A DNA stretch of 63,218 nt, filler included, from Reclinomonas americana ATCC 50394 (Eukaryota), in NCBI GenBank assembly GCA_048213135.1. It is 5 parts of 5 records of this genome, joined end to end, with 100 filler letters (N's around TTAATTAATTAA, not from the genome) between each part and the next. Parts side by side here need not be neighbours in the genome. Positions count along the whole stretch, not along the records: positions 1 to 29,117 come from PS015703.1; positions 29,218 to 38,192 come from PS015704.1; positions 38,293 to 49,123 come from PS015705.1; positions 49,224 to 59,156 come from PS015706.1; positions 59,257 to 63,218 come from PS015707.1. One strand, given 5' to 3'. A model generated the notes under the pieces. That model was given only the letters and a program-made list of their open reading frames with translations, was not told where the DNA came from and made no database searches. The position numbers were made by a program, and so were the translations under genes. Positions within the stretch are counted from its first letter, which is position 1. The number at the start of each line of letters is the position of its first letter. Positions 12,080 to 62,760 of the stretch are shown in pieces.

Positions 12080-15000
12080 CTAGCAATCACCCGCCCCGGG
12101 GCGAGGCCCGCGAGGTGACTGACGCTCGCCAAAAATCTTCGAGTCCCACATTGCCGACGACGAGAGCGACACCGACCGCTGCATGTCACTGTCTGTAGCC
12201 GCCGTGGCGTCGCCCGAGACAACCGAAGCGATGGAGTCGATGCGAACAACGACCGTGTCGGGGTCTTCAGGTTCCGAGACCGCCACCGTGTCGGGCGCAA
12301 GATCTCCTTGCAGCAGTCGCTTAATGGCGGGCGAAAGTACCTGCTTCGACTTTTTGGCGCGCTTCTCGGCCATCTCCAGCGGCGTCTGCCTCTCGTGTGT
12401 GTCGCTCATGGTCACCATGTGCGGGAAACGCTCCACCAGCATGCGAATGATGGTCTACGCCGGTGTAGCGGTGTGAGTGCGAGGCAGAGCGTGTGCGTGT
12501 GTGCGACTGGACACGTGCACTCACCTGGCGGGGGCGAACGAAGGCGGCCGAGTGAAGCAGAGTAAAACCCCACCCAGTGACCTGCTGAAAGATCTCGGGC
12601 GGAATCACGTCGGGTGGCGATTCGAGGAAGACCTTCAGCACCTCACAGTTGCCGGACGCAGCTGCAGTGTGCACTCTGTGTGCATGGTGAGATGCTGGGC
12701 AGTGAACACCCAGCAACGGCGCGTGTGCACGCAACGGAGTACAGTTCTTGCTGTCGGGGATGCAGACAAGTGGCGGTGATCCAGGCGGCGGCGGCAAGTG
12801 CAGCAACCACTGCGCCAAATCACGGGAGCCTTTCCTCGAAGCCGCGCAATGCAGCAGTGTGCGCTCATCAGCCGCACTGTGACGAGCATTGTAGATGGCC
12901 TCTGGTCCAAAGCGCGGATGCTCGGCCACCGCCTTGTGCAGCCGAGGTCCGCACCGATAGCTGGCCAGCACAAGCAACCGATTGATGTTGGTGGCGTCGG
13001 GGTAGTCTTCGTGCGGCCGCTGCTCCATGTGCTCCAGCAGGGAGAATGTCATGCGCGGCTGACCCACTGTGTGTTGCGAGGCAGCGGGTAAGATGAGAAG
13101 ACGAGGTGATAAGTGATGCACGCAGTGCGCAACTGCCAGCCGCCCAGTCAATCGGCAACTCAAGCTCCGGACTAGCGTCGAATTGGCTCTGCGAGCGAGA
13201 AGCTGCACCTGGTGAAGCCAAGACACCAACTGGAGCCCCCTTCAGCGGCGGAGTGTTTGGCGGTCGTCGAGCATACAGCAGATTCGGATCGATCCGCAGC
13301 AACAGGTTCATCGTTTGCAGATTGCCATCGGTGTCCCACCCAGCGCACAAGTGTGCCGCATTACGCGACAGCATGTCACTACAAATACACGCGAAATGGT
13401 AAGGTATTTGCCAAGCAAAAGCGATCTCTCCAGTGTCGACGTACCGCTCATGCAATGCTGTCACCAGCAGGTCGCGCCTGTCGACTTGTTCACTCGAAAG
13501 GAAGGCGTCTACCGACCGGATAATGCACTCGCGACCTAAAATGCGCGGTGAGTAAGTGGTCACGCACGCACACAAAGAAACAGACGCTGCAACACACCCC
13601 ACATCGAGGCAACCGAGATCACATTGTGACCGCGCAAGTTGCACACGGTCATCAACTGGGGATCCGTCCGCAGCAGCTCCATCACCACATCGACGTGGCC
13701 TTGTCGAGCGGCCAAGTGAACTATGTGTGCGGCGCACGCAAAACGATGAGTACCAGAACAGGTAGAGGGTGCAGATGACACATGCACGCACTCGGCAAGT
13801 TGCCGGATGTGTTTGGTTCGCGAACACTTGCGCCGTGTCTAATGAGTGCCCGCACGGCTTCCACATGACCACTGCCAATGTAAAAGTCAGTACTCACAGT
13901 CTATCCAGGGAAAGGGGCAGGCGATGGGAAGCGCAACTTGGTGGCCGCCACGTGCAGCGGCGTGTCACCACTGTTGCCGAGTTTTGCATGCAGCAAGGAT
14001 AGACGCGGATCCGCTGGCGCCTCCATTCCCTCAACAACGGCGTGCAATGACGCAGAGGGAATGGTCGCGATCAGCGCGTCGATCATCTGCACATGGCCAT
14101 CGAAGGCGAGCCAATGCAGTGGAGTGTAGCCGAGCTTGTAGTCTTCACAGATGCGGAACTGGTGGCCGGCATACTGCAACAGGGTGATAAATGCCGCACT
14201 GTCGACTGGCAAATCACGCCAACGAGCAAAGGAGCGCGCAGCCATCGGGAACTCCTCCAGGAACGAACTGAGCACTTTGCAGATGCTGTTGCTGACGGAT
14301 GCCGTAAACGGTTCCATGAGCAGCAGAAACTCGTCCAGTTGATCAATCCACAGATCGTCATCGCCCTCCGGTGCTGCAATGTCTCGTCCAGGTCAGTAGA
14401 GCGACAAGAGACACAGAAATGGACCAGACATGTAACGCACGTGGAGTGCAGCACCACGCATAGACTCCAAACGGAATGAGCATTGCTTCGAATTCGCTGC
14501 AGAGAAGATCAGTGCTGTTCGCGTTCAGTTGGGGCGACCGCATCTTCAGCTTCCAGATATCGACCAGAACTTGTGCCTGTACACGAGAGTGAGGCGCGCT
14601 TCAATGACTGTGCGGCTGTTGATCGCCAGTCATCAAGCCATCAAACGTACCATGGATCTCCAGTATCCAGCAGGCTCACCGGCGCCACTTGACGACGAGG
14701 CTGTCGGCGACGATGCCCCTTGTGGCTGCCGTGGGTCCAATGCGGCCATGCGGAAAAGGTCGACCCTCGCGTCATGCAAGAATGGAAAGCGCGTCAAGTA
14801 CGAGCGACCGCGCAGCTCGACGTAGCGGGCGGCGGCATCCACAAGCTTTCGCTGCAATCAACCAACACGACGCTTGGTGAGACTGATACAACGGGAGTGA
14901 GACACACGGCAGCAGCGCGCAGCAAACCGATTTCTTCTCCCAGTGGTTGAACCAACGGTCGCAGAACTGATGCCACAGAGCAGAGACCAATGCTTGGCAC

Positions 15001-18000
15001 AACTGCCCAGAAGGATGCAAGAAACAGTAGTATTCATGACCACGGTCGAGCTCCGACAGCCAGCGAGCGAGAGGAGGCACAATCCGCAGGGTCTCCACAG
15101 ACTCCTACACAAAAGCCAAGGGTCAGCGGGAGCGCATTAACAACATGCGTGGCTGTGGCGCAGGCGCACCGAGCACACAACGCCGAGATCGTCAGAGGAT
15201 CGGCGAATCAAAAACCGCTCAGTGTACGAGAGGCAACGCTTCAGGCTCCTGGCGTCCCAGCGACTTCTCGGCTGAAGCATGAACAATGCGTCGAGCAGTT
15301 CCTTTTCCGACAACGGTGTTGGCGATGCTGTCACAAAAACAAATGACGGTCAGCTCCCTCGCGCATGGCGCTGATAATTGCGGCTGTGGTGCCTCACGCA
15401 ACTCAGCAGCACTTCGAACATGGGTTGCACTTCAGCGAATGAAACCCTGCTGGGATCCAGTGCGAGTGATGGAGACAAATCTGCAATGGGCACTGGCGAC
15501 GGCGCCGGAGTCGATGACACGCATCGAGAAAGCCGCTGCACAATTTCCTCAACAAGAAGTGCTTGTGGAGTGCGGAGTCCAATTCCCAGCTTCTCGGCAA
15601 TCTTCTTGCACTGTCCAACTTTCGAGTAGTCAGCAGCAAACAGTGCCGGTGGCTCCTCAATCTCGTTGAGTTTCTCCGACATTTGGTCCATACGAGCCGG
15701 ATCGAGACCGAGACCACCCAAGACGTCAAGCCATGAGATGCCTGGCACCTCGCTCTCGTCCTCAAAGCTGAAGTTGGAAAACGACTGCACAAACATTTCT
15801 TCGTAGATGGTATCGAGCTGCACAAAGAGAATCAGCACTGATCAATGCGGACAGACAGTGTCACACACATACCTCCTTTGGCAGGTGCTTCAGATCGGAC
15901 GTGGAACTGGCCACAATCTCCAGAATCTTGCTCAGGTAACGGAAGTTGTGGTTCGCCACGCGGCACAATTCGCACTGGCCGAGACGCACTCGCAACTCCT
16001 GTGTGGCTGCTGATGAGTCTCGTGAATTGTTGGCTTTCGGTGCCCACTTTTTGACGGCGTGGCGCAGCCGAGGGTCTTCATCAACGGTGTGCCGGACGAA
16101 TTCCTCCGCATCCGATCGACTCTCCTTGTCTTTCGGATCACCCAGTGCCTTCGCGGTGAATGTCACCTGTAATGCACGGCGGTCAGAAAGCCATTGGTAT
16201 GTCGACTGACTCGCAAAAACGGTGACTCACCGATGGAGCTGCATGCAAGTACGAATGCGCCGCGGCTGACGATGAGGAAGCCGCGTCACAACGTAATAAG
16301 TTGTGCAGGAGTTCCATGTAGTCATCGGCCACAGTGAACACCAATCGGATCCACTGCGGAAAGTCGGCAACCCTGCACAACAGAGTGAGAGAGCAACGAT
16401 GAGCATACGCACAAGAGAAAGACGGGGACAAGGAAGAGTGCAAACGAACATTTGACGCATGAGCCTCAACAGCTGCTTGTACGATTCACGCGCTTCTTCG
16501 GGCACCCTGTCCTCGGCCACGAGTCCATCAATGACAAGAATCATGGGCTGTGTGCGCACATACACAAACAGAGTGAATTAGTCCATTGGATGGCGCGCCA
16601 AGCACACTGCAGCTAGGTACCTGTCGACGCGTGTCTGGTAGGTAGGCGAGAGGGTCCTTGACGAGCCACGTCCAGTCTGCAGAACGCTCATTGTCGTACA
16701 CGTCACCATTCTCGCGGAGAACGGAGGCCAGAGTTTCACGGAAGTTGGGAACGGTGCGAAGAAACATGGAGGTCACGCTCCGAATGAACATGTCGGTTGT
16801 CAGTGAGCGCGTCTCGCTGGCGTTCACAATGTAGAAACCCGCGATGCGATCCACCGGAACGACAATGTTATCGTAGAAGAAATCACCCTGCAAATGCGTG
16901 CATTAGCAATAGACAGCGAGTGTTCTGCCGAGTACAGGACGACCACGCACCTCAACATCGGTGTCGACACCTGGATACTTGTTGTGGACCAGAAACTTGT
17001 GGGCGATCTCGCACACCAACGCCGTCTTGCCGACGCCAACACCACCGTGCAACAGCAAGACGGGTCGTGGTCCATCCGCACACGAGGCTGATGCCGACGG
17101 GTGAGACGACGACGGGAGAGGCGACTGGTCGCCAGTGCGGAAGTCTTCGATGGCGGCAAACACTGATCGACGACCGAAAAACGCGTTGCCTCGCCATCGC
17201 AGCAGATTCTTCTGGTACAACACAGCCTGCGAGTGACCATCCATGTTCTGTGACACCCTGTCGCTGCGCAGCGGAGGGCTAACGCGGATGTAATATGATG
17301 TGGGTGGTGATGCGAGTATCGTCGCGGTTGAGAGAAACACGAAGAAGCTCACCATGCACGATAGGCACTCGTCTCATACTCGCCGCGCACCACTGAAATG
17401 AATGGATGCTTCAAGAGCTCGTCCACCGTGGCCCGCTCCGATCTGGCACACGAGTGAAAATGAATGAGGCACGCATGAGCGAGATAGGCGGGGGCGCGGA
17501 CGCAACGGTTCTTCAACGAAGCACCGACTCAAAAAGCTCTTGGCCTCATCGCTAATGTCGTCGGGGATCTCAGGCAGAGCATTGGGCTCCGGGATGTTCA
17601 TGTTGCCGTTGGTGAGCATCTGCATACAAAGAAACGTGTTTGTCAGCGAATGATTGACGGCGCAGCACTCAGATAAGCGGGAAAACTGCAGTACCTCGAC
17701 AACAATGAAGCCGAGCGACCAAATGTCACTGAGCACCGTCGCACTGTGTTGCTTGCGAACCTGGAGAGAGTCACAGGTAAGGCATCACTGGGGAAGTGCT
17801 TGTGAGTCGACAAACAGTAGATGCACCTCTGCCAATACAAGAGATTTGAGTGAGCAAGTCACTAGCAGAAAGCAAGTATGTTATGCAGACAAACCTGGCG
17901 CCATGGCAAACGGGGATCCGCGGAACGTTTGGCGGGCATTGTAGGCTGCAGTTGGAATGGTCTTGCTCGTACCTGCCCACTGCGATGAGACGACAGAGCG

Positions 18001-19478: not shown

Positions 19479-20045
19479 TCAAGGGTAATAGTCGACATCG
19501 GCGTCGAAACCACAGCCGTTGGTCAGGTGGTCGTCGTACTGCTTCATGGCCGGTTGAGACCAGCCCTGCATGGTATCAAACATGATTGTGTAAGCAAATC
19601 AGACGTGTCGGCGGATTGCATGCATGTGGCGAGTGTGCAGACGCAACTCCGAAGGCGTGGAAGTTGTTGTAATTCTGCGTTGGGAACACACGTGAGAGAT
19701 TAGTCTCGGTGACTGCAAAGAGAGAATGTGCGGACGGAGTCACCTGCTGCCCATCCCACGCCGCGTACCACAACGGGTGGCTGCTCACGCTGGTGCAGCT
19801 TTTGCCCGGAATGCGGCCCCACATGTATGTGGAGGCGTACACACCTGCGGTGGGAAGATGGTCAGTCGAAACCCATGAGGAAGGGGGAAAAGAGAGGTAA
19901 ACGAACCGACTTGACGGCCATGAGCGCCAATAGCGTTGGCCAGGTCGGCCAGGTACTCGCAGTTGGAGGCGTAGTCGGTGCCCCAGCCGCAGTTGTCGCT
20001 TGGGTTGTCCTCAATGTCGAGCCACACCATGCCGTACTTGATCTG
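19479..20045 (-). CDS. GH25-family lysozyme (protist/nematode type), 3' exons; 5' part lost in the gap
   Basis: YGMVWLDIED, GVYASTYMW, PLWYAAWDG, NF..FG|GWSQPAMKQY, CGFDADVDYYP*. Confidence 0.88.
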
Positions 20046-27100: not shown

Positions 27101-27733
27101 CGTGGGCGGGATTGCGTGCATGGCGCACGGCCGTGTATGGCTGCGTCGACGCGAGTGGCGCACACAATGCCGCCTTGCAAGCTCGCTTTCTGTCGCAAGT
27201 CGACTACGGTGCCTTGGCGGCGGCCGTGCGTGCAGCTGATGCAGTGGATGGCTCGGCGGCGACCTCGTTTGTGCAACAGGTTTTCCTCGTGTACCTCAAG
27301 TACGTGCCCATTCATCGATTCTCACGCGGGGTGTGCGCAGGTGGCTCTTGTACTGGATCAGTATCCCATTGCCGACGCTCTCGGGGCGTTTGCCAGCGTG
27401 CTGGAACTCGCCGACGCACTCGTCCAACTGCAAGGTCGTCAGCAATCGACGCCTCTCAGCCACCCACAGAGTTGCGTACCTACTGATGGCCCTTGCGCGA
27501 TACGCACCTGACTCCTCCCTACTGCAGACGACGACGAGAAAGCCGCGCTCTTTCTCGGCGACCACATCGACACGGTCACTCGCACACACGTCTGCGATCT
27601 GGTGTGCCACCTCGAAGCCACCATGCCACCGCTGCACCCGATCCTCTGCGAAAACATGCTCGTCGATCTGCAACTGCAGCCATCACCACGCAGCATACCA
27701 CCACTGGCCGACTCGTTACGTCTGCACGCTTGA
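21180..27733 (+). CDS. Large multi-exon hypothetical protein (alpha-helical/coiled-coil character); could be more than one gene
   Basis: Chain of Leu/Ala/Glu-rich exons joined by short GT-AG introns (e.g. EEFDAQRRQEALRVL, ELVEVLAQSRELA, FVQQVFLVYLK|VALVLDQYP), ending ...LADSLRLHA*. No family recognised. Confidence 0.55.
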
Positions 27734-28414: not shown

Positions 28415-29161
28415 GGACTTCATTTCATTGTCAGCAGTCTGTGAGCGCATGCTGCAGTCCATCGCCCGTTTCGTTCCCTCTCGCCTCTCTCTCTCTCTCT
28501 TCTCTGTCACTCTCTGTCTCACTTTTACTCTTTTGGGGGGTTACACAGGGCACCCATGGCGATCGTTCTTTGCGGTGTCGGCCGCAGCAGGCGCTGTGCG
28601 GTACGCGCTGCTGGAGCCTGCTGAGCGCGACGATGTGCGCATTGCCGTGGAGGGCGTGTGGCGATTCGCGCGCACGGCCACTGCTGTTGAGTGTGAGCAG
28701 AAAGAGAGGAGAGAGAGATGTTAAGGAGAAGGAGAAGAGAGGGAGAGAGAGGAGAAAGAAGAAGGGGGAGGGCGACACGCTGCACCTTTTAGTCGCCACC
28801 TAACACGACTTAGGTGTCACCTTCCCCCTCTCTTCTTCGTTCTTCTTATTGTTGTCCTTCCCCTCCTCCTCGTTTCCGCTTCCATTTCCTCTTTCTCCTC
28901 TCCCTTCTCCTTCTTTTTCTGTTGTTGTTGTTGTTCTCGTTCTCCTCCTCCTCCTCCTCCTTCTTCTTCTTTTTCTCCTCTCTCTGCTCTCTGTCTTCTT
29001 CTTCTTCTTCTCTTCATCTCGTTCTTGTTCTTGTTCTTGTTCTTATTCTTCTTCTTCTTCTTCTTTTTCTTCTCCTTCGTCTTCTTCTTCTTCTTCGTCT
29101 TCTCCTCCCCTCCTCCTNNNNNNNNNNNNNNNNNNNNNNNNNNNNNNNNNNNNNNNNNNNN

Positions 29162-29173
29162 TTAATTAATTAA
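29162..29173. other. Artificial gap linker TTAATTAATTAA inside an N run (also 38237-38248, 49168-49179, 59201-59212)
   Basis: Identical 12-mer with stops in all six frames, centred between 44-N runs. Confidence 0.97.
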
Positions 29174-29264
29174 NNNNNNNNNNNNNNNNNNNNNNNNNNN
29201 NNNNNNNNNNNNNNNNNATTCGTCATGTTGTTTAAAATCGATACTGACTGCTTTGTTTGTGCAG

Positions 29265-29911
29265 ATCGTGCGTTGTGTGGAGTGAGCCCTGTGTGTTCGT
29301 GTGTTTTTGCTGACAATGGTGCTCATTCGTGATTTTGTGGTGTTGGACGACAGATCGACCAGTATGCTCCTGAGTTGCGCATTGCTTTTGACACAAGTGC
29401 TCGCTCTTTCATCACATCCCTCACCATCTCTGCAGGATAATCCAGGCCCTTGTCGACAAGGTCGACCCGAAGACGGTAATCTCGCCTCCACCTTCTCCAC
29501 AGGCAATGCGATCCACATGCTCACATTGACGTCGCCACAGCTGTGCAAGGACCTGCAGATCACCAACCCGCTGTGCCCCTACGTCGTGCAGCAGATTGTG
29601 AACGCGCTCAAGAGCAACGCCACCGATGTTGCGTCAAGTCTTGCACGGGTGTGCATTCTTCGGTACTGATGTGTGCTACTCGGTGCAGGAGGAGATCGCC
29701 CACGAGGTGGAGACGGTGTGCCAGAAGCTGCCGAACCCGGCCGGCGAGTCCATTGTTGATTGCAGCAAGCTGTCGACGATGCCGAGCGTGCAGTTCACCA
29801 TCAACGGTTTGTTGAAAGAAGACAGAGATGGGGAGTCAGACACAGTCAGCAGTCAGTCCTTTCAACTCTCTCTCTCTCTCTCTCNNNNNNNNNNNNNNNN
29901 NNNNTCTTCTA

Positions 29912-29966: not shown

Positions 29967-30576
29967 CACACACTTTTGTATTTTGCTCACCTCGTCCCCA
30001 CAGGCAAGTCGTTCAACCTGGACCCTGTCGACTACGTGCTCAAGCTCGGCGTCGAGGGACAGTACGAGGTATGTAAACCGTCTCTTGGTTTCTTGTCCTC
30101 AGGCGCTCATCGTTCTTCTCTTGTGCAGTGCGTCTCTGGCTTCATTGGTCTCGATGTGCCATGTGCGTTGTGCTTGTGCGTTCCATGTGTTTCCCACGCA
30201 TTTACTCACCGGTGTTTTGTTGTGCGTCTCCCACAGCTGCCCCGTTGTGGATTCTGTGCGTATCATCCTCTGTTGCCCTGTTTGATGTTTGATTTCCTCT
30301 TGTTCTAACTTGTTATGAATGCCATTTTCTGTTATGTTCTACAGTGGCGACGTGTTCATGGGCAAGGTACATTGCGCTTGCGTTTCCTTCCCATATTCAC
30401 TTCGTCGTACTCATTCATCGCTCTTCTCCTTTCTGTCGCTCATCAACCTCAGTACTACACCAAGTTGCGTTGCCTTTTCTCTCCCTTTTCTCTACCCAGT
30501 ACTAACTTGTCTTCCCCTCGCCACCCTCAGGTTCGACTACGGAAACAAGCAGGTGTCGTTCGCCACGGCGACCTAA
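29265..30576 (+). CDS. Pepsin-family (A1) aspartic protease with saposin-like insert (phytepsin-like), C-terminal part
   Basis: Spliced: IDQIIQALVDKVDPKTLCKDLQITNPLCPYVVQQIVNALKSNATDEEIAHEVETVCQKLPNPAGESIVDCSKLSTMPSVQFTINGKSFNLDPVDYVLK...[43 protein letters not shown]. Confidence 0.92.
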
Positions 30577-36583: not shown

Positions 36584-38192
36584 ATGAAGTTCCTCGCCAT
36601 CTCCGCAATCTTCCTCACTCTCGTCGCTGCGGCGTACGCTGGCGGCGGTGCATGCACCAACGCAGGAGGCCAATGCAACCCCAACGTTGCGTGGACACAC
36701 AAGCGTCTCTCTCTCCTGTGGTAGGCTTGCTCACCGTTTCTGTATGCGCAGGGCTTCTGCAACGGCGGTGCCTGTGTGTGTCACTCTGTGAGTTTGTCAT
36801 TATTTTTCCGAACACGTCACACCTCATTGCTTTCAAACCACTCACACATGCCACCGCATCCGCACAGAACTGCTTCAACCTCGGCGGCAACAACAACGTG
36901 TGCGCTCAGTGGGCTGGTCCGTTCTGCTCGTGGTGAGTGGCAAAAGAGAGGGAAATGCTTGTTCACTGTTGTTTGCACTTTTCCGATTTCGCGGGTCGCA
37001 CCGCTGAGAAGGACTTCGCACCACCTCTATGTGTGGCCCCACGCCCATTTCTTTGCTCTGTCGCGCTTGCTCGTTTGCACGGAAGTCACTTTTTGTTCGC
37101 TTCTCACAACACTCGTTTTCGCAGCCACCCGCACGTCTCCTGCAACGACCACGGCAACTGCAACGCGGCAGGTGCGTGCGTCTGCAACGCTGGCTTCTTT
37201 GGCGCCTCGTGCTCGGTGGCATGCTCGGTTCGTTTGCTGTTCTTCCTCCCACCGATCTTTCTCGCCACTACTGCTCACCGCACTGCTGCAAACAACAGGC
37301 CGCCACCACCTGCAATGGCCACGGCACCTGCAACAGCAGTGGCGCCTGCGTGTGCACTGGCAACTTCACTGGTGCCAGCTGCAACACCTGCACGGCCAAC
37401 TACTACGGTGCCGGTTGTGACGTGTTCTGCGATGCGGCCGTGACATGCTCCGGTAACGGCTCGTGCGACGCGAGCGGTGCCTGCGTGTGCTCCGGCAACT
37501 TTGCCGGTGCCGACTGCACCTCATGCGCGGCCGACTACTATGGTGCTGCTTGCGACGTGTTCTGCAATGCCGCCACCACCTGCAATGGCAACGGCTCGTG
37601 CGATGCCGCTGGTGCCTGCGTGTGCACTGGTAACTTCACTGGTGCCAGCTGCAACTCCTGCACGGCCAACTACTACGGTGCCGGTTGTGACGTGTTCTGC
37701 GATGCGGCCGTGACATGCTCCGGTAACGGCTNNNNNNNNNNNNNNNNNNNNCGTGCGACGCGAGCGGTGCCTGCGTGTGCTCTGGCAACTTTGCCGGTGC
37801 CGACTGCACCTCATGCGCGGCCGACTACTTTGGCGCTGCCTGCGACGTGTTCTGCAATGCCGCCACCACCTGCAGCGGCAACGGCTCGTGCGATGCCGCT
37901 GGTGCCTGCGTGTGCTCTGGCAACTTTGCCGGTGCCGACTGCAACTCATGCGTGGCCGACTACTTTGGCGCTGCCTGCGACGTGTTCTGCGACGCGGCCA
38001 TGACATGCAGTGGCAACGGCTCATGCAATGCCAGCGGTGCTTGCGACTGCAGCACCGACTTCTACACTGCCGACTGCTCAGTGTCGTGCACGGTGAGTTT
38101 GGCAGATCGAGTGGTCGCCGTCGTCGTTTTCTGTCACTGACTCTGTTTCTCTCACTGAGAAAAGGCTGCCACCACGTGCTCTGGCAACGGCT
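36584..38192 (+). CDS. Secreted cysteine-rich EGF/laminin-EGF-like repeat protein, copy 1 (3' end appears in inverted contig 38307-38614)
   Basis: Signal MKFLAISAIFLTLVAAAYA; 45-aa, 8-Cys repeats (CDAAVTCSGNGSCDASGACVCSGNFAGADCTSCAADYYGAACDVF). Confidence 0.85.
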
Positions 38193-39537: not shown

Positions 39538-41857
39538 ATGAAGTTCCTCGCCATCTCCGCAATCTTCCTCACCCTCGTCGCTGCGGCGTACGCTGGCGGC
39601 GGTGCATGCACCAACGCAGGAGGCCAATGCAATCCAAACGTTGCGTGGTCCACGTGTCTGTGCCGTGACGCAATCGAACTCACCGTCGTCTGTTCGTTCA
39701 TCTCCCTTCCTCTTCTTCTTTTACAGGGCTTCTGCAACTCCAGCCATGTCTGCGAGTGCCATAACGTGAGTAGTCGTCCTCCTCATGTTTCCGAGTCGCG
39801 ATCGCATCGAATCTGCGCATCTTTGTCTGTCTGTCACGCGCAACTCATCACTGTCCTTCCCCCTACTTCATTGCAGAACTGCTACAACCTCGGCGGCAAC
39901 AACAACGTGTGCGCTGTGTGGGCCGGCCCGTTCTGCACTTGGTGAGTGGTGTGTGTTCGGTTTCTCCTGTATTTTTGGCAGCGAGGTCCGTCCACGGCCA
40001 CACACGCACAGACACATCAGCAGTACTTCTGAAGCCGCTCGTTAGACATGATAATACTCTCCTGTCTTCTGGAATACCAACAGTTGAACCACAAACGCCT
40101 TTGGGGCTGTGGTTTCAGTTTTCTCTTCGCATCTTTTGCAATAGTTGCTGACAAGGAAGGAGACAGCAGCGCGTGCTGTTGTCACTGCTGAGGCACAGAG
40201 ACTAAGAAGGAGCATGAGGAAGACATTGCTGTGTTCAGTTTCTTCGGTCTCCCTGTCGTCAGACGTCGACGTCTGTCTTCCCCTCTGTTCTTCTTTGATC
40301 TTTCTTGCTTTGTTCTTCTTCTTATTCTTCTTCCACCGTCACCACCACCGCCACCGCCTCCACCTTGCACTACCTCTCAACCTTTTCTTCCTCTTCCTCC
40401 CTCCTCTTCCTCCTCCTCCTCCCCCTCTTCCTTCCTCCCTCCCTCCCTCCCTCCCTCTCCTCCTCCTCCTTCTCACTCACTTGTCTTCCTCCGGCAGCCA
40501 CCCGCACGTCACCTGCAACGACCACGGCAGCTGCAACGCGGCGGGTGCCTGCGTCTGCAACGCCGGCTACTTTGGCTCTGACTGCAAGACTCTGTGCTCG
40601 GTTCGTCTGCTGTCCTTCCCACCACTCACTCGTCTTCGCCACTGCTGCTCACCGCACTGCAAACAACAGGCTGCCACCACCTGCAACGGCCACGGCACCT
40701 GCAACGGCAGCGGCGCCTGCGTGTGCACTGGCAACTTCACTGGTGCCAGCTGCAACACCTGCACGGCCAACTACTACGGTGCCGGCTGCGACGTGTTCTG
40801 CGACGCTGCCACCACCTGCAGCGGCCACGGCTCGTGCAACAGCAGCGGCGCTTGCGTGTGCTCTGGCCACTTTGCTGGCGCCAGCTGCAACACCTGCGCG
40901 GCCAACTACTTCGGCGCCGGCTGCGACGTGTTCTGCGACGCTGCCACCACCTGCAGCGGCCACGGCACTTGCGACTCGAACGGTGCCTGCGTGTGCACTG
41001 GTAACTTCACTGGTGCCAGCTGCAACACCTGCACGGCCAACTACTACGGCGCTGCCTGCGACGTGTTCTGCGACCCCGCCATGACCTGCAGCGGCAACGG
41101 CTCGTGCAACAGCAGCGGTGCTTGCGTGTGCTCGGGCCACTTTGCCGGTGCCAGCTGCAACACCTGCGCTACCAACTACTTTGGCGCCGGCTGCGACGTG
41201 TTCTGCGACGCTGCCACCACCTGCAGCGGTCACGGCTCGTGCGACTCGAGCGGTGCCTGCGTGTGCACTGGTAACTTCACTGGTGCCAGCTGCAACACCT
41301 GCACGGCCAACTACTACGGCGCTGCCTGCGACGTGTTCTGCGACCCCGCTATGACATGCAGCGGCAACGGCTCGTGCAACGCCAGCGGTGCTTGCGTGTG
41401 CAACGCCGACTTCTACACTGCCAACTGCTCGGTGTCGTGCACGGTGAGTTTGGGAAGATGCAGAGTTCGACCTGTCTTTGTTTGTTGTCACTGATTCTTC
41501 TTCTTGTTTCATCCACTGTAGGCCGCCACCACCTGCTCTGGCCACGGCTCCTGCAACGCCAGCGGCACGTGCGTGTGCTCGAACGGCTTCTCGGGCTCCG
41601 ACTGCAGTGTGCCGCCCAACAACTTCTGCAACGTCGACAATGACTGCCTGGCTCAGTCGCTCGGCGCTCATGCCGGCAATGGTGGACTGATCGACGGTGG
41701 CCGGTGTGTGTCGGGCCAGTGCCAGTGCCTGCAGGGCAACTCTGGCCTGCACTGCGAGTGCCGCGCCGACTCCATCTTGTGCCCGACTGCGGGTCAGAAT
41801 GTGGCCGTGTTCGACACCACGACGGGTCTGTTGAGCGGCTGCGCTTCGGTGTGCTAA
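39538..41857 (+). CDS. Secreted cysteine-rich EGF/laminin-EGF-like repeat protein, copy 2
   Basis: First coding exon nearly identical to copy 1; same intron positions; 135-bp repeats; ends ...TTTGLLSGCASVC* with no obvious TM or GPI tail. Confidence 0.9.
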
Positions 41858-42184: not shown

Positions 42185-44397
42185 TCAGTAACGTGTGGCC
42201 GATCGCGCATCCATCAGCGGTCTCCGCATCATTACTCCCTGCGGCGATCCGACGCCACCACCGTTGCTGCCACCACTGCCTCCACCACCCGTCAGACTCG
42301 TCAGCAGTGTGGCAACACTCGACGGCGATGTGACACTTCCACCAGCCCCACCGGCCACGGCCGCAGCCACCGCCGCCGAGGTGGGCGTCGTCACAGTGGC
42401 CCCGTTGATGCCGCCACCGCCACCGCCACCCATCAAATGAGATCCCGAGGGCGAGCCGACACCACCGACACCAGTCGCTGTGGACGATGATGACGATGGC
42501 GACGAGGCCACCATGGGTCTTCTGGTGGCTCCTCGCGAACCGATGGCGGAGGGTGGTGGCGGCCGCGGCTTATTCGATGACCAATCAAACGAGTTGATGC
42601 CACCGTAGTGGTGATTCACTGCAACAGCAGCGACACGTGTTGGCCGACCACTCCGACAACATGCAAAATACAAGGCACGCAACTGTAACCAAGATCGTTC
42701 TGGAACGTCTCATACGAGAGCGGTAACAACTGATACTGGCCCACACTCGGGTTCACGCGGTACCGCACAATGACTGCGTCGCCCTTGGCACGAAATGCTG
42801 GCAAAAATCTGTGGATGCATCATCATAGGAATCAGTGACAATGGTAAAGGTGGTGGTGGTATGACAACTCTCGGATCCTCTCACTGTCTCCCACTTCCCC
42901 GCTATTTTACCTCTTGATTCGATGATTCTCCATCAGATTGGCCGTCACCGCCGCCGTGCACAGCATGCGCCGATCATCCTTGTTCTCGCGTGAGTTTGGC
43001 AGCCATGCACGACACTGGAACTTGCCGCCAATCAAACCCTGTACCGCATGTGCATTTACACACATGGTGGGCATGACAGGAACAGCGGAAAGCATGTTGT
43101 GAAATACGCCACCTGCAAATCGCTAATGTGCCGCAGTGTTGTCGTCGTGTGCTCACAAATGGGCACCGACTCATCACTCGGAATGTGCACAATCTCCACC
43201 AGCGTGTTGGAGTCGCACGACAACCACCAGTTTGGATCGTCATCAGCTAACGGGAGGATCAGCAAACAAGGCAACTTACACGAGACATATCTCTCTGTCA
43301 ACTCACCCACAGACGGCAGCGGCACGGCGGGTGCTGGAACCAGTGGAGGCTCCGGCTGACCGCGTCCTCGCGATCCTATTGTCCGCGAACCAACCAGCGC
43401 CGTCGGCGGTCCACTGACACCCGGAGTACTCGGCTTGCCAGTCATGTCGGGTGCTGCTTACAAGCACACAAACGACAAACAATAAACAAACGAGCCATCT
43501 CAATCGACTCTTTCATCAGCCGGCGACACACACACACGCGCACCAGGGATTCCATACGCCATGCTCCGCGCACGCGATGCCATCAAGCCAGGTGGAGGAG
43601 GCGCCGGTGACATGTGACCATTTTCCACGCCACCATTGCCATTCATGCTGGCACCACCGACACCACCGACACCGCCTCCCGCTCCACTCGCTCCCATTCC
43701 GCCTCCGACACCACCAGCACCACCGTTGAGTGGCAACAAGCCGTCTGGCACTGGCGTGCTGCTGGCGTACGGGGAGGATGACGGGTCATTCGCGCCTCCG
43801 TTCGGCTTCATCACATTCTGGAAATGGCGCAGTCCGAATCGTCGTTGTGCGGCAGCCGCCGACGCCCCTTGCGTGTCCACAATCCGACTAGTGTCTGTAA
43901 GCGCAGTGTGTACGTGTGTGGGTAATGGAAATAGAGAGAACTGGCAGAGCAAGCGACTGGCGTACCACCCCGCTGGCGGACATCGGGAGAGTACAATCTC
44001 CTGCAATGCAAGAATGGCAATGTCAGTGGGGAGAACCTAGGTACAGATGGTGGTGGATTCGACGCAACGAAGATGGATACTGCACGCTGGATGCTAGACC
44101 AGCACGCTCCTGACCTCCGGGCGGTAATTTGCTCTGCCGAGCAGCCAAGTGAGGCGACAGACACGAGGGAGAGACAGAGAGACAAGCGAGCAGCAGAGAG
44201 ACAAAGAGAGAAGCAAGCAGGAGAGAACACGCTATACGAAAGCACGCAGGGAAGAGGCTGTGCGTGCGAGAGACAGACGGAGAGAGAGAGAGAGAAAGAG
44301 ACAGAGAGACGAGCAAGCAGCAGAGAGAAGCAAGCAGGAGAGAACACGCTGTGTGACAGCACGCAGGGAAGAGGCTGTGCTTGCGAGAGACAGACAG

Positions 44398-49101: not shown

Positions 49102-49223
49102 AGAGACGGAGGGAAGGGGGAGGNNNNNNNNNNNNNNNNNNNNNNNNNNNNNNNNNNNNNNNNNNNNTTAATTAATTAANNNNNNNNNNNNNNNNNNNNN
49201 NNNNNNNNNNNNNNNNNNNNNNN

Positions 49224-55729: not shown

Positions 55730-56603
55730 ATCGAGACAACTCTTACGCAACTGGCCAGGCACGTCGGGCACGAGGAACCGCACCAGAACCATAAAGGTCA
55801 TGAAAACGTGCTCCACCACGATAAAGGCCAGCACCTTGTTCTCCGTTGGCTCCAGATTAATGTTCCAGAATGAGGTGAGAGACGTGGAGGTGATGGTGAT
55901 GAGGTACGAGTTGACGACGACGGAGAATAGCACGATGGACTCCATGACCGTTTGCCAGGTGCCTGAGAGAGAGAGAGAGAGAAGAAGAAGAAGAAGAGTC
56001 AGCACACGCATGACAGAAATTCGAAGACGCGCGATTACTCACCAATGCTCTCGGCACCATCGGCTGGCGGTCGCTGGCACTCGCGCAGAATCTTCGACGC
56101 ATCAATGCGGATCTCAAACAGATTGTTGAGCAGCGCGAGAGCCGGAGCCCAGGGCATGGCAATGGTGAATTGCGTCACGTAGCCGAATTGCACGGCAATT
56201 TCGGCATAGTCGTCCACAGGGCTGGGAAGGAGGAAAGGGGGGAGGGAGAGTGAATGAGGAGAAGGTGGCAAGAACAAAAAGGGAGGAAATCATCACCTCT
56301 CGTACGGCGACAGCGTGTTCTGCTTGTCCAGCGGCGACGCCTTGAGCTGCTGACCAATCTTCTTGGCCGAGCGGCGATCGCTCCAGCCCTTCAGCGTCTT
56401 CTTCAGCCACGGGAGGAAGACTTCCAAGATGTTGCCGACGATCTGGCGGGAAGTGCAAGGTGAGGAAGAGGGAAAAGGGGGAGGGAGAAAAGGAGGAGGG
56501 GAAGGGATTTGTTTGAATGGGGATCACGACTTCGTGTGAAGGAAACCATGCTCAGTGAGAAGCGACGAAAGGGAGGACGATACGCTGACACCATGGTGTG
56601 TGA

Positions 56604-56637
<34 letters not shown>

Positions 56638-59016
56638 CACACAAACAATCCAATACGCGTTAAGAACTGAGTACAGAACACGCTAAAACGGATGTTTCAG
56701 AAGAAGGGAAATACATGCGACAACTTGAGAAGGAAGCAACATGTCGAGACGAATAAACACAAAGTGATAACACGCGTGGTGCAAGAGGAACGAGAGAGCG
56801 ATGAGAGAGAAACGCGACGTCAAGATAAAAGAAAGAAAGAGAGTCAGGGAAGGAGAGAGAGAGAGAGAGAAGAGAAAGAGAGTGAGAAAGACAAGCAGTT
56901 GGAAACGCGAAAGAACAGGCAAAGAAAATAACGCCGAGAACGCGAAGAAGAGAGGAGACGAGAGACGGTGAATGCATGTGACAAATAAGGAACAGAAGCA
57001 CCAAGAGAGAGAGAGAGAGAGAGGAGACGAGAGACGGTGAATGCATGTGACACATAAGGAACAAAAGCATCAAGAGAGAGAGAGGAGGGGGGGGGGGTGG
57101 AAGCGATGGGAGGTGTGGTATGACGACAGGAGAATGGCAAAGCACTCGTCTCACTACACAGAGAGACAGAGAGAGAGAGAGAATTAGCTCACCTGCTTCA
57201 CGGTCAAGTTGATCAGCAGCTGGAAGAAGAGCTCCTGCATGCGAGCCTGTCCGTTGACCTCGTACTTGCACTCTTCGGGGATGCTCTTCAGCGGGAAGGG
57301 CGCTGCGGCGATCAAAAACAGCGCAATGTTGGAGTTGACAAACTGGAAGAGGAAGGCCTTGCCAATGGCCGCGTTCTCCTCGTCGGTCTTGGTGCGGTAG
57401 TTCTCCAGTCGGTTGGCAATGGCGGAGGCGATCTTGTAAATGATGCCAAAGACAATCATGGAGGACACGTTGGCCACGCTGCGAATGCAAAGGGAACAAA
57501 ACGGGTCTGAGTGCCCTGCCAGCACGCCACAGCTTGGACGACGGAGAGACGCAACGCAATAATGACACTCCAGTACGTCGGCAGCTTGCCGTCATATTCC
57601 TCATATAGTCCGTTTCTCCAAACTCTGATAAAGATAGCGACGATAATGGCGCCCGACACCTGTCGATAGAAGGGAGAGTGTGAGGAGAGAGAGAGAGGGA
57701 GAACAGAAGAGGAGAGGCCAGCGACGCAACAATGCAGACAAGCAACGGCACGGTGCACGCGTATGTCATCCAGCGGCGGTATGTGGAGTAGTACTTTTCC
57801 CTGAGCACGGTGCGATCGGCGGAGCCGCTGACACCCTTGATCGTTCGGCGGAACACGCGAATGGGCACTTGGAACAAGAGGTTCTCGTGGTCGAGTTTGA
57901 CGTCGCGCAGGGTAAACTTGAAGTTCTCACGAACTTCCTCCTACGAGGGGAGCAATGGGTGAGCACAGACATTCTATCCCTCCGTGCCTGTGTGTGCAAC
58001 TCACCGTCTCCTCAAACTCGTCCATGCCCCACTCGTGAATGAGCGTGGCCTGCCGCCGTTTCCATGTTTCGTTCAGCAGTGTGGCCCATACTAGCGTGAT
58101 GAATGCTAACGCGGGTGACATGGCATTGTCCCAGCGCGTCTTGTACAGTGTGCCGGTGGGATTGTCGTTGGCCGGTGACGGACAGGCTTGTACTTGCCCG
58201 GAACCGAGACTGTCATCAAACGAGGGTGTGCGTGAGCATCCGTGGGGAGAGGTGATCAGAGTGATGAATCCACGCAACGAATACAAGCCGACAACAATGC
58301 CAATGATCGACAGACTCACGAGCCACGTGGTAATCGAGCCCAGCCAGGCAAAGTACAGCGCCACCTTCTCGCCCAGATACAGACGAATGTCTTGCATCGG
58401 TTGCCACGAGAACATGCGCCTGAACGACGCCCACCGGTCAATCAGATCGCGCCGACGCACATCGCTGTGCAGCGCAATAATCTGCTTCAAGACACCATCC
58501 CTCTTCAGCTTGTCCAGCCCTGCAGCAAAATGAATGGTGTAAGCGTCGTCCCCCGCTGACAGCACAAACAAAAGCACGCCATCCGCAACGAAAACCGCAG
58601 CCGTCCCTGTGCTCAGGCACTGTGAGCTTGAGCAGGGTGAGGGCTTGCCGTTGTGCGGGAGAAAACAGTGAGGTCTGGCCGTGGAAATTGTCTTGCTCTT
58701 GGTATTTCGTGCGCTGGGCCTTTTCAAACGGCGCCGTGCCGCCCTCCTGCGCAGCGTGGTGAGGGCGAGCGCACACAAAGGACCCCAGTGTGTGGAAAAG
58801 AGAGAGAGGGCACGCAACTACGAGCTCCATCTCAAAGCCAATGCGGTCCGCGAAATCCTCCAGCTTGTCGTCGTTAAGGCCGAATGTGACAAACTTCTCG
58901 TCCTCGTCGACCGAGAAGCCCTCCTCCACGTGGAAGCCGCGACGGCAGAGTGAGAAGACGAGTTTTTGTTGGCGTTGCTTGGCAAAGTCGCGTTTGAATT
59001 GTACGTTGCGGTCGGA
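55730..59016 (-). CDS. Anoctamin / TMEM16 family (both ends reach gaps)
   Basis: QPMQDIRLYLGEKVALYFAWLG, WKRRQATL..EWG, ENYRT, KAFLFQFVNS, DDYAEIAVQFGY, PALALLNNLFEIRIDASK, IG|TWQ, PDVP. Confidence 0.93.
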
Positions 59017-59259
59017 GGTGCGGGCTGGGGAAGGGGAAGGGGGGAAGGGGGAGTGGGAGGGGAGGGGAGGGGAGGGGAGGGGAGGGGAGGGGAGGGAGGG
59101 GAGGGGAGGGGAGGGAGGGGAGGGGGAAGGGAGGAAGGGGACGGGAAGGGGGGAAANNNNNNNNNNNNNNNNNNNNNNNNNNNNNNNNNNNNNNNNNNNN
59201 TTAATTAATTAANNNNNNNNNNNNNNNNNNNNNNNNNNNNNNNNNNNNNNNNNNNNCTC

Positions 59260-59345
<86 letters not shown>

Positions 59346-59348
59346 CTC

Positions 59349-59397
<49 letters not shown>

Positions 59398-59793: not shown

Positions 59794-62760
59794 AGCCGAA
59801 TTCGAGGGCATGTTCAGCTCCGGCGACATGCAAGAGGCGTTCAAGCGAGCAATGTCGGGCGGACTGCGACAGTCGACCGTGCGCAGTGTTTGCTGGAAGG
59901 TGCTTTTCGAACTGGGGAGTCTGCAAACCATGCTCTCGTTGCTTACGGTCTTGCAGGTCTTCCTCGGCATCCTGCCACCCAACAACGATTTTGCGACATG
60001 GTCGACGGTGCTGCGTGAGACGCGCACCAAGTACGAGCAGCTGCGACAGACGCACATTATCGATCCGTACAAGCTGGTGCGCTCAATTCCTCATTTTATA
60101 TTTCTCTTTCGAGTTTTGTTGCTCACACCGTGTTGGTATGCCAGACGGAGGATCTGGACCCGACGGTTCACAATCCGCTGTCACAGAATGCCGAGGTGCG
60201 CTGCAATACCTCGTGCAACCGCTGCTGCATGCCACTCACCACCCTCTATTTTCTACCGCAGTCTGCATGGACTCGCTTCTTCCAAAACACCGAGGTGGAA
60301 AAGGAGATTCAGCAGGATTTGGAACGATTGTTGCGTGCGCACCATCAACAGAGCTATATTTCTTCAGCTCACAGTCCTCCCCTCACCCTCCCTCCCTCCC
60401 TCTCTCCTTCCTCGTGCAGGTACCCGGGCATGGACTTTTTCCAACAGTCGCATATTCAGGAGAGCATGCTGCACGTGCTCTTCATCTGGTCCAAGGAAAA
60501 TCCGGCGCTGTCGTACCGCCAAGGCATGCACGAGCTGCTGGGCATTATCGTGCTCGTCCTCGACAACGACAAGACCAAGTTGCGTGGTCACGTAGTGAGC
60601 GCGCATCATCTCCTTCGCTGACTTCTGTGTGCAGGAATGCGAGTGGCATCCTCGGCGAGGTCACCAGCGACAAATACTTGGAACACGACGCTTACACGCT
60701 CTTCGATCACCTCATGGACACGATGAGGCAGTGGTTCGACGTACGCCTGCAGTCGCCTCCATCTCCGCGCAGTGCAAGGCGGCGGGGTGGACCGGCTCGT
60801 GAATTGCTTGACGTTGAGTGACACTGTGACACACACAGACACACTCACCCTTTCTCTCTGTCACTTCACCTGCCCCCTTCGTCTTCCCCCTTCGTCTTCC
60901 CCCTTCGGTCTTTCCCTTTCCATCCTCCCCCATCTCCTTCTCCTTCTCTTCCCGCTTCCTCCCCTTTCTCTTGCCCCCAAACCTTTTCCCCTGTTCCTTC
61001 CCCCTGTTCCTTCCCCCTGTTCCTTCCCCCNNNNNNNNNNNNNNNNNNNNNNNNNNNNNNNNNNNNNNNNNNNNNNNNNNNNNNNNNNNNNNNNNNNNNN
61101 NNNNNNNNNNNNNNNNNNNNNNNNNNNNNNNNNNNNNNNNNNNNNNNNNNNNNNNNNNNNNNNNNNNNNNNNNNNNNNNNNNNNNNNNNNNNNNNNNNNN
61201 NNNNNNNNNNNNNNNNNNNNNNNNNNNNNNNNNNNNNNNNNNNNNNNNNNNNNNNNNNNNNNNNNNNNNNNNNNNNNNNNNNNNNNNNNNNNNNNNNNNN
61301 NNNNNNNNNNNNNNNNNNNNNNNNNNNNNNNNNNNNNNNNNNNNNNNNNNNNNNNNNNNNNNNNNNNNNNNNNNNNNNNNNNNNNNNNNNNNNNNNNNNN
61401 NNNNNNNNNNNNNNNNNNNNNNNNNNNNNNNNNNNNNNNNNNNNNNNNNNNNNNNNNNNNNNNNNNNNNNNNNNNNNNNNNNNNNNNNNNNNNNNNNNNN
61501 NNNNNNNNNNNNNNNNNNNNNNNNNNNNNNNNNNNNNNNNNNNNNNNNNNNNNNNNNNNNNNNNNNNNNNNNNNNNNNNNNNNNNNNNNNNNNNNNNNNN
61601 NNNNNNNNNNNNNNNNNNNNNNNNNNNNNNNNNNNNNNNNNNNNNNNTCCCTCTTCCCCGTTTCCATCTTCCCCTTTCCCCTTTTCCAATCTTCTCCCCT
61701 GCAGGTCGGCGTCGACAAGGTGTTTGGCGGATCACACGACTCAGGGAACCAGGCGGAAAGTGTGGTGGTGACTCTCGCACAACACGTGCAAGATGTGCTG
61801 CTGAAGGAGCGTGACCCCGCATTACACCGTCACTTGTCGGCACTGAGCATCGAGCCGCAGCTGTACACGCTGTTGCGTAGCCCCCTCCCCGTCGTCGCCA
61901 TCGCAGTTGTCTTCTTCTCCTCATTCTCCCTCCTCCTTCTCTGTATCTCAGGCGGTGGGTGCGATTGCTGTTCTCTCGAGAATTCCACTTGGAGGACACG
62001 ATGATTTTGTGGGACGCGTTGTTTGCCGACTCGGCCGAATTGACGTTGGTGGAGCACTTTTGTGTGGCCATGCTGCTGTTCATCCGTGGCCAACGTGCGT
62101 TTCCCATTTTCCTGTGCAATTTTATGCTCCGTGCACTCGCTGTCCTCACTCCTTGTTCCGCAGTGCTGCAGATGAACTACGAAGGCTGCATGCGTCGCCT
62201 TCTCAAGTACCCGCCCGTGGAGGACATCTTGCCGTTCATCCGGAAAGCTCTGCAGTCGCGCAACAACAAGACGGACTTGCTGCAGGACACGGATGCGCCG
62301 GCACCGTCGACACCGGTGCAGCGCAGCGGAGCGTCGGTTGCTGCATCAGCGGGCCAACGGGCAACAGTTGCGTCACCCATGTGCGGTGGAGTGGTGTTGT
62401 TTTCATGGACTCAAATGGTATTTTTTTGCAGGCTGCCAGCGCTGCTCCCGCCAGCTCGGCACAATCGTCCCGCTCGCTGGCATCCTCTCGACAGGCCGCC
62501 GCGGTCCCACAGCGGACGCCAGGTGGCGCCTCCCGACCACAAGCACCTGCACAGCACGCGCCAGCGCAGCCACCATCGCATGCGGCTGCCGCTGCAGCAC
62601 GGCAAGGTACTCGGAGATGTGCTTTATTGCTATCTGATTGTCTGCATCTCATTCGCTCTCCGCAGCCGAGTCTGCGGCAATCCAACAAGAGAGCATCCGA
62701 CTGCAAAACGAAGTTAGCGCGCTTCTCGGTCTGCAGAAGCGCATGGGTGCCAAGCTTGAT
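59794..62760 (+). CDS. TBC1D5: TBC-domain Rab GAP, TBC1D5-like (partial)
   Basis: RSVCWKVFLG, NPLSQ..SAW..FF, IQQDLERLYP (Arg finger), SYRQGMHELL (Gln finger), LEHDAY.LF, IEPQLYTLRWVRLLFSREF, LLKYP. Confidence 0.88.

Follow-up and report, generated by a model that had tools for sequence, protein, structure and literature searches.

In a window of 63,218 nucleotides (nt) of the Reclinomonas americana ATCC 50394 genome (GCA_048213135.1), by which we mean the whole stretch of DNA that was analyzed, a large share of the predicted introns start with the hexamer GTTGCG. Protein homology and the DNA itself confirm, at the level of predicted junctions, that GTTGCG sites are genuine and abundant donors (5' splice sites), used beside G|GTGCGY and G|GTGAGT donors in the same genes. 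Relative to these ordinary donors, the class is offset by one base, and we consider it somewhat probable that H|GTTGCG(T>C,G) represents a major donor class of U2-type GT-AG introns that is read one base longer by a non-standard U1 small nuclear RNA (snRNA). An earlier note on this DNA had listed 18 predicted introns of this kind; GTTGCG is present at 18/18 of the coordinates and on the strand given there, and CAG is found 56–90 nt downstream of each site.

The firmest evidence comes from two genes, encoding a TBC1D5-like protein and an anoctamin, which were analyzed with a GeneWise-like spliced aligner and a junction refiner whose knowledge of donors and acceptors was limited to GT and AG, guided by the homologues P0001 (TBC) and P0092 (anoctamin). 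Six of the 21 introns returned by the aligner were dropped before counting, four in the TBC gene (60741, 61006, and 61720, around a gap of 617 N, and 62337 in an unalignable tail) and two in the anoctamin gene (57201, 478 nt, and 56714, 272 nt), where the alignment to P0092 is poor. Among the 15 reliable introns, eight start with GTTGCG versus about 1% of the GT sites in the window (74/7112), which excludes chance. These eight homology-defined donors lie at 60330, 60579, 61872, 58818, 58589, 58278, 57730, and 57555; three of them (58589, 58278, and 57555, all anoctamin) were absent from the earlier list and emerged from spliced alignment to P0092. Intron-likeness, where quoted, derives from a scan of the body and acceptor behind every GT, for which the 15 homology-defined introns, GTTGCG and ordinary alike, served as training set; refinement scores are given for the best versus the next-best solution, and the ordinary donors form our comparison set.

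TBC1D5-like gene:
59900..59956, plus strand: intron of 57 nt, ordinary donor AAG|GTGCTT; refiner and aligner
60077..60144, plus strand: intron of 68 nt, ordinary donor CTG|GTGCGC; refiner and aligner
60196..60261, plus strand: intron of 66 nt, ordinary donor GAG|GTGCGC; refiner and aligner
60330..60419, plus strand: intron of 90 nt, donor GTTGCGTGC, junction ATT|GT...CAG|G; refinement 58 vs 31, spliced aligner agrees
60579..60634, plus strand: intron of 56 nt, donor GTTGCGTGG; spliced aligner, weak homology support
61872..61951, plus strand: intron of 80 nt, donor GTTGCGTAG; refinement 56 vs 35, spliced aligner agrees
62095..62163, plus strand: intron of 69 nt, ordinary donor AAC|GTGCGT; refiner and aligner
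62367..62431, plus strand: candidate intron of 65 nt in the gene tail, donor GTTGCGTCA; open frames of 162 and 161 codons, intron-likeness 2.4

Anoctamin gene:
58747..58818, minus strand: intron of 72 nt, donor GTTGCGTGC; P0092-guided refinement 61 vs 55 (donor 58821), aligner agrees
58520..58589, minus strand: intron of 70 nt, donor GTTGCGGAT; refinement 31 vs 19, aligner, donor-agnostic gene finder
58210..58278, minus strand: intron of 69 nt, donor GTTGCGTGG; refinement 59 vs 45, aligner agrees
57941..58004, minus strand: intron of 64 nt, ordinary donor ACG|GTGAGT; refiner and aligner
57660..57730, minus strand: intron of 71 nt, donor GTTGCGTCG; spliced aligner with P0092, intron-likeness 18.1
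57479..57555, minus strand: intron of 77 nt, donor GTTGCGTCT; aligner (PTYWSVIIAVANVSSMI vs PTSLLVATALANTVAMI, ungapped), donor-agnostic gene finder
56222..56296, minus strand: intron of 75 nt, ordinary donor GAG|GTGATG; homologue votes and aligner
55963..56042, minus strand: intron of 80 nt, ordinary donor TTG|GTGAGT; six homologue votes and aligner

At 60330–60419, tblastn of four TBC homologues leaves a gap of exactly 30 amino acids (DLERL|YPG), and QLYTL|RWVRLLF is contiguous across 61872–61951 in four homologues. At the refined junctions the next-best solution is lower by 6–27 score units, except for 60579, which lies in a variable region and where the best two solutions have the donor in common and differ in the acceptor only (16 vs 15). 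The donors at 57730 and 57555 are supported by the spliced aligner without junction refinement, and the region of 62367 falls into the unalignable tail, where the aligner picked 62337 instead, a row dropped as unreliable. The earlier statement that protein motifs force many of these junctions is thus upheld by homologues for DLERL|YP and QLYTL|RWVRLL, while for the ankyrin and pepsin sites (12735, 30464) it comes down to a reading of consensus spacing. Further support is provided by the paralogous donors at 36686 and 39640, where the exons match at 87/90 positions and GTTGCGTGG persists in spite of a diverged intron body with a 21-nt indel. Together with the three new anoctamin introns, 21/21 GTTGCG introns start with GT and end with CAG. 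The hexamer itself occurs in 76 copies on both strands versus 50.95 ± 6.74 in 100 dinucleotide-preserving shuffles, none of which (0/100) reached 76; since the excess of about 25 copies is close to the number of donors, we count it as donor support.

How common the class is was approached in several ways. A dynamic-programming gene finder lacking any donor model (coding potential +1 to +6 nats per exon), whose outcome we used for ranking hexamers only, assigned GTTGCG to 12/92 predicted introns, compared with 5 for GTGAGT and 3 for GTGCGT, the next in rank, and placed it at the top in every run. With a self-trained donor model, the gene finder recovered 10–11 of the 18 earlier-listed sites and 1–2 of 4 verified ordinary donors. 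In the intron-likeness scan, 23/74 GTTGCG copies pass the 90th percentile versus 7.4 expected, with only the low-complexity hexamer GTCTCT scoring higher; a scan for introns by pyrimidine content was discarded because low-complexity (CT)n sequence dominated it. Overall, the class can be said to account for about a sixth to a half of the introns in the window and to be the single commonest donor hexamer. The abundance asserted earlier is therefore borne out by the 8/15 homology-defined introns, and the accompanying label 'atypical' picks out a real and distinct class but understates it, since GTTGCG is the commonest donor hexamer.

For the anatomy of the class we considered 21 donors (the 18 listed earlier plus the three new ones), in which +1 to +6 are fixed by the way the donors were chosen. 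At +7 they read T18, C2, G1, and A0, compared with T15, C13, A13, and G12 in the 53 other GTTGCG copies, so that T is enriched (18/21 vs 15/53, Fisher 1.4e-5) and A depleted (0/21 vs 13/53, p = 0.015). The exon base at -1 is A10, T4, C4, and G0 in the 18 listed sites, matching the earlier count, and A10, C7, T4, and G0 in all 21. Absence of G at -1 distinguishes the class from the ordinary donors (0/21 vs 6/7, p = 1.9e-5), also when only the homology-defined sets are compared (0/8 vs 6/7, p = 0.0014), as well as from the non-donor GTTGCG copies (0/21 vs 12/53, p = 0.015). The seven ordinary donors (GTGCTT, GTGCGC twice, GTGCGT, GTGAGT twice, and GTGATG), with their six G residues at -1, are in line with the earlier description of ordinary donors as often G|GTGCGT or G|GTGAGT, and their position -2 is composed of A4, T2, C1, and G0 (n = 7). 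Position -1 of the class thus resembles ordinary -2 and not ordinary -1, which fits a one-base shift, as a simple bulge of U+3 would keep the G at -1. The earlier proposal that A|GTTGCGT is AG|GTGCGT displaced by one base holds for the offset itself, with -1 behaving like -2 and CGU moved, and fails for the pairing, which with a standard U1 is unstable (-1.36 kcal/mol, see below).

Apart from the donor, the two classes look alike. Intron lengths are 56–90 nt for the class and 57–80 nt for ordinary introns, the CAG acceptor and CTSAC-like branch motifs are common to both, and, with the two classes pooled, the bodies of the homology-defined introns (n = 15) are 69% C+T; a YTNAY motif is located 3–34 nt from the 3' end in 19/21 class introns. 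GTTGCG and ordinary donors alternate within the same genes. Two other identities were considered and rejected. U12-type donors are of the rigid (A/G)TATCCTT type, which is ruled out by 21/21 donors reading GTTGCG, and if an intron at AG|GTGCGT had slid through a change of G to T at +1, its 3' boundary would be expected to shift as well, with loss of the AG.

To relate the offset to U1, 14-nt donor windows were folded as duplexes with assumed U1 5' ends, the standard one being AUACUUACCUG as printed in PMC4856993. Mean duplex energies (kcal/mol) were as follows:

Standard U1: class (n = 21) -1.36, ordinary donors (n = 7) -6.13, 1500 random GT sites -2.89
Mastigamoeba-type ACGUAC in the same frame: class -5.61, ordinary donors -8.07, 1500 random GT sites -4.23
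Hypothetical one-base-longer ACGCAAC: class -10.81, ordinary donors -6.83, 1500 random GT sites -5.02

Since the standard U1 pairs with the class worse than with random GT sites, an ordinary U1 would be unable to mark these donors; the shifted register appears in 2/21 of the minimum-energy duplexes, and no register is consistent. The analogy to human GUUAAGU-type donors drawn in the earlier note is therefore not transferable on the basis of an ordinary U1. With the ACGUAC-type U1, 15/21 minimum-energy duplexes adopt the shifted register (G+1:C9, A-1:U10, U+3:A7, and CGU opposite U1 positions 5–3), and G+1 is placed opposite C8, its canonical partner, in 1/21 duplexes with either the standard or the ACGUAC U1. 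Ordinary donors pair with ACGCAAC by way of a bulge on the U1 strand. The suggestion, likewise made earlier, of altered recognition or a variant snRNA is in line with the in silico failure of the standard U1, and the predicted offset pairing holds only with a non-standard U1. Rfam yielded no family in the window at gathering scores and no spliceosomal snRNA in the window at E values up to 1; the sub-threshold matches (E up to 1) were microRNA-like or chance hits (isrG, n-myc IRES, snoR125), mostly in low-complexity DNA.

Our preferred reading, a donor class read one base longer by a non-standard U1, would work as follows. The homology-based junctions place cleavage before the first G of GTTGCG, and the conserved CGU, at +5 to +7 in GUUGCGU and at +4 to +6 in GUGCGU, is the element that both classes share. 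Either U1 is displaced by one base, with G+1:C9, A-1:U10, U+3:A7, and CGU opposite U1 positions 3–5, or the U1 5' end itself may be one base longer. In both geometries the U1 5' end would differ from the standard ACUUACCU, at the minimum by a G able to pair with the C in CGU, which is the case for the published ACGUAC of Mastigamoeba. U6 and U5 may then fix cleavage at the GU, an additional nucleotide being looped out. Possible, although on balance doubtful, is a more far-reaching version in which two donor lengths of comparable frequency are served by one spliceosome, U1 having changed (to an ACGCAAC-like end, or to ACGUAC used in two registers) and the U6 ACAGAGA box tolerating one base of slack. 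GUUGCGU and GUGCGY would in that case be read by one CGU-pairing core, a base being looped out on either the donor or the U1 strand. If true, no earlier organism would be on record that recognizes introns mainly, and not as an exception of 1–2%, through a noncanonical register of the 5' splice site with U1.

Several points weigh against reading the class in this way. Every junction was predicted from DNA and protein homology, and 7 of the 18 earlier-listed sites (13133, 15402, 19647, 27471, 29628, 42683, and 62367; intron-likeness -1.2 to 5.7) are backed by continuity of open frames only. The best gene-finder run recovers 9/22 known introns, which makes the census unreliable, and the enrichment in the intron-likeness scan fades at higher stringency, with 8/74 GTTGCG copies passing the 95th percentile and the hexamer ranking below 14th place at the 98th. 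Ordinary donors available for comparison are few (n = 7, from two genes), and A occupies -1 in only 2/8 of the homology-forced class donors. As for U1, all pairing energies depend on the assumed 5' ends, and the class mean of -5.61 with ACGUAC is modestly better than that of random sites (-4.23, 5th percentile -8.6). The shifted register would also tolerate G at -1 by G.U wobble pairing, such that the total absence of G is not fully accounted for; avoidance of an over-stable duplex as its reason is speculation.

An alternative that we regard as unlikely is the coexistence of two U1 populations, an ordinary or ACGUAC-like U1 and a dedicated variant complementary to GUUGCGU, without any shifted register. 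Seven bases define the class sharply, none of the 15 homology-defined donors is intermediate, a complementary 5' end would pair strongly (-10.81 kcal/mol vs -5.02 for random sites), and an over-strong duplex of this kind could account for the avoidance of G at -1. Yet the one-base-longer U1 also pairs with ordinary donors (-6.83, with the bulge on the U1 strand), so that one U1 may suffice, and the two classes alternate in the same genes and have acceptor and branch features in common.

A bulged register, in which G+1:C8 and U+2:A7 are kept, one U (+2 or +3) is bulged out, and GCGU pairs beyond it, appears improbable to us. GTTGCGT does equal GTGCGT plus one extra T, and bulge registers have been validated experimentally in human cells (PMC4856993). 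Such a register, however, predicts a preference for G at -1, which is absent here (0/21 vs 6/7 ordinary donors), and G+1:C8 occurs in just 1/21 minimum-energy duplexes with either U1 tested.

We likewise consider it quite improbable that the class is the relic of an introner, i.e., a mobile element with a GTTGCGT end that seeded introns of which the splice-critical bases alone survive. The uniform seven-base start, the distinct -1 preference as a possible trace of the target site, and the similar intron lengths (56–90 nt) might be viewed in this light. All-against-all blastn of the 28 intron bodies, however, gave only low-complexity matches of the (CT)n type, 12–17 nt in length, which argues against introner copies; acceptors and branch motifs are moreover the same as in the other class, and such an origin would leave the recognition of the site by the spliceosome unexplained. 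Very unlikely, in our view, is recognition independent of U1, by direct U6/U5 selection or by a protein factor that binds GUUGCGU: the class does pair with standard U1 worse than random GT sites do, but the presence of CGU in both classes (+5 to +7 and +4 to +6) points to the same RNA partner, and we know of no precedent for U1-independent donor recognition on such a scale. Finally, that the class is an artefact of gene modelling, with true donors nearby (e.g., the GT at +6/+7 in GTTGCGTG) or no introns at all, is hardly credible, since, even though the junctions are predicted (7/18 on frame continuity only) and G at +8 in 9/21 donors gives a second GT at +6/+7, the homologue gaps match the GTTGCG...CAG intervals exactly, alternative donors score 6–27 units lower at refined junctions, and a switch to the GT at +6 would lengthen the exon by 5 nt and put 60330 and 61872 out of frame.

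Shifted-register 5' splice sites in human were reportedly described by Roca and Krainer in 2009. Our class resembles them in that the cleaved GU lies one base upstream of the position marked by U1, exon -1 acts as -2, and +3 is a U. It differs in that the human sites pair with standard U1 and account, together with the other validated noncanonical registers, for 1.5% of 201,541 donors (PMC4856993), whereas here 8/15 homology-defined introns are concerned and standard U1 pairs at -1.36 kcal/mol. With the bulge +2/+3 register outlined in PMC4856993, the class has in common an additional U that separates the GU from the downstream bases engaged in pairing, but the preference for G at -1 is lost (0/21).

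The Mamiellales such as Ostreococcus likewise have C at +4 and G at +5, short introns, and an ACTGAC-like branch motif; they differ in being intron-poor, with a standard U1 and one donor form, the strict GTGCG(T/C) that was reportedly described by Irimia and Roy in 2008, and the genes of our window do not, as we read them, point to a green alga. For Thecamonas and the Mamiellales, Roy and Bowser (10.1101/2022.06.08.495308) list C at +4 together with a standard U1, and for other lineages they describe U1 5' ends that changed along with the donor consensus, namely AACAAAC in Entamoeba and ACGUAC in Mastigamoeba, the latter with GUGCGC donors. Expressed sequence tags define introns in Mastigamoeba balamuthi with a 'clear preference for GUGCGC', and the genome of this species has 60.7% GC and 3.4 introns per gene, which average 137 nt (PMC8136499). 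Gene density and GUGCGC donors of M. balamuthi agree with our window, while its GC content, its intron length, and its marked GUGCGC preference agree less well. The Archamoebae are thus comparable in having a lineage-specific donor consensus, and GTGCGC/T donors also occur in our window. In Entamoeba nearly all donors are of the atypical type and the number of introns is low, whereas in our window two donor lengths coexist in intron-rich genes and 7/15 homology-defined donors are of other types. The words 'shifted' and 'bulge' as well as GTTGCG are absent from the text of 10.1101/2022.06.08.495308, its figures and supplements aside, and GTTGCG is absent from the examined part of one supplement of PMC8136499. 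A full-text, whole-word literature search with the DNA and RNA spellings of the motif returned nothing on splicing. We place the GTTGCG class, as a new form, among the donor consensuses that are specific to a lineage and whose pairing with U1 is noncanonical or has co-evolved; a genome paper may already describe it.

The question that such a class addresses is how far pairing of the 5' splice site with U1 and U6 can drift in the evolution of the spliceosome. Known cases are either rare exceptions within one genome (human, 1.5%) or a wholesale replacement of consensus and U1 (Entamoeba). Two donor forms one nucleotide apart, at similar frequency and in the same genes, would amount to a natural experiment on register flexibility. 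It would also bear on the way in which U6 and U5 set the cleavage site without depending on U1 and on the spread of a new consensus. On the practical side, gene finders trained on GTRAGT would mis-model a large share of the genes of this organism.

The remaining GTTGCG introns and candidates lie in other genes of the window:

12676..12735, minus strand: intron of 60 nt, donor GTTGCGTGC, within an ankyrin repeat; NCTP|VHTAAASGNCEVLKVFL, intron-likeness -0.5, low
13067..13133, minus strand: candidate intron of 67 nt, donor GTTGCGCAC; frame continuity, donor-agnostic gene finder
13872..13937, minus strand: intron of 66 nt, donor GTTGCGCTT, within an ankyrin repeat; splices to GDTPLHVAATN|GHVEAVRALIRHGASV
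15328..15402, minus strand: candidate intron of 75 nt, donor GTTGCGTGA; frame continuity, one of two stop-free solutions, intron-likeness -1.2
17443..17506, minus strand: intron of 64 nt, donor GTTGCGTCC, end of a protein kinase domain; Pkinase profile arithmetic
19566..19647, minus strand: candidate intron of 82 nt, donor GTTGCGTCT; donor-agnostic gene finder
27471..27527, plus strand: candidate intron of 57 nt, donor GTTGCGTAC; frame continuity, intron-likeness 4.7
29628..29688, plus strand: candidate intron of 61 nt, donor GTTGCGTCA, aspartic protease fragment; NATD|EEIAHEVETVCQKL
30464..30530, plus strand: intron of 67 nt, donor GTTGCGTTG, aspartic protease C-terminus; YYTK|FDYGNKQVSFATAT*, intron-likeness 11.4
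36686..36751, plus strand: intron of 66 nt, donor GTTGCGTGG, EGF/DSL gene copy A; paralogue alignment
39640..39726, plus strand: intron of 87 nt, donor GTTGCGTGG, EGF/DSL gene copy B; paralogue alignment, intron-likeness 14.0
42619..42683, minus strand: candidate intron of 65 nt, donor GTTGCGTGC; frame continuity, intron-likeness 2.5

For the kinase, the exon upstream of 17506 covers positions 171–245 of 263 of the Pkinase profile at residues 12–90 of 92, and the spliced product reads ...FVEEP|SERATVDELLKHPFI, with 15 residues after the junction and HPFI at the end. The profile probably ends in this manner (HPFI-type end), which would fit the junction. In the kinase gene at about 18130–18192 (minus strand), HRDLK is followed by an in-frame stretch of 63 nt (GTCCAG...CTGCAG) that contains CAACTGAT, and then by SENVVV. 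This stretch probably represents an intron whose donor, GTCCAG, is loose, and donors other than GTTGCG seem quite degenerate in the window. Used as a query in a protein search, the kinase exon retrieved no homologue.

The open reading frames around 13937 and 12735 gave Pfam matches to Ank, and that downstream of the 29628 intron a weak match to Asp (E 0.014). The junctions at 12735, 13937, and 30464 presumably fit the consensus spacing of ankyrin repeats and pepsins, judged by reading. For 30464, the C-terminus GDVFMGK-YYTKFDYGNK would agree with the pepsin consensus. Between an intron of the AAG|GTGCAC type and the 30464 intron lies a putative micro-exon of 11 nt (TACTACACCAA, encoding YYTK; 30453–30463, plus strand), which would be needed because this pepsin-like C-terminus must stay in frame. 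The gene with the 19647 donor had been called a lysozyme in the earlier note, a label that was not reproduced: the open reading frame at 19648–20010 (minus strand) matched no Pfam family and no PDB entry at E values up to 1 each.

The EGF/DSL copies A and B are tandem paralogous genes at 36400–38200 and 39200–41900 (plus strand) for secreted EGF/DSL/teneurin-like repeat proteins. In their alignment the exons and the first nine intron bases are conserved and the rest of the intron is diverged; their next donors, TCT|GTGAGT and AAC|GTGAGT, are of the ordinary type without G at -1. Ten more possible GTTGCG donors (intron-likeness of at least 5) are located at 2970, 32267, 44068, 50669, and 52558 on the minus strand and at 22951, 29374, 31071, 49983, and 52046 on the plus strand, with G at -1 in 0/10.

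The genes recognized with Pfam are those for a family-2 glycosyltransferase, two WD40 proteins, the ankyrin-repeat protein, the protein kinase, the aspartic protease fragment, the two tandem EGF/DSL proteins, a GHMP kinase, the anoctamin, and the TBC (TBC1D5-like) protein. The closest TBC homologue in the protein collection is 69% identical, and a protein search with the anoctamin retrieved distant animal proteins only. Loci from metagenomes reached no more than 34% identity over long stretches and were left aside. G+C amounts to 57.1% outside the 19 N runs of the window. Four linkers of the form N44-TTAATTAATTAA-N44, with stops in all six frames, occupy 29118–29217, 38193–38292, 49124–49223, and 59157–59256, from which it follows that at least five contigs have been chained artificially to give the window and that genes on either side of a linker are not necessarily neighbours. 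Contig ends are where two of the genes begin, namely the protease fragment (after 29218) and the TBC gene (after 59257). Microsatellites of the (CT)n/(GA)n type are extremely abundant throughout the window (GAGAGAG/CTCTCTC, about 474 copies); tracts of this kind border most N runs and read SLSLSL when translated in open frames.

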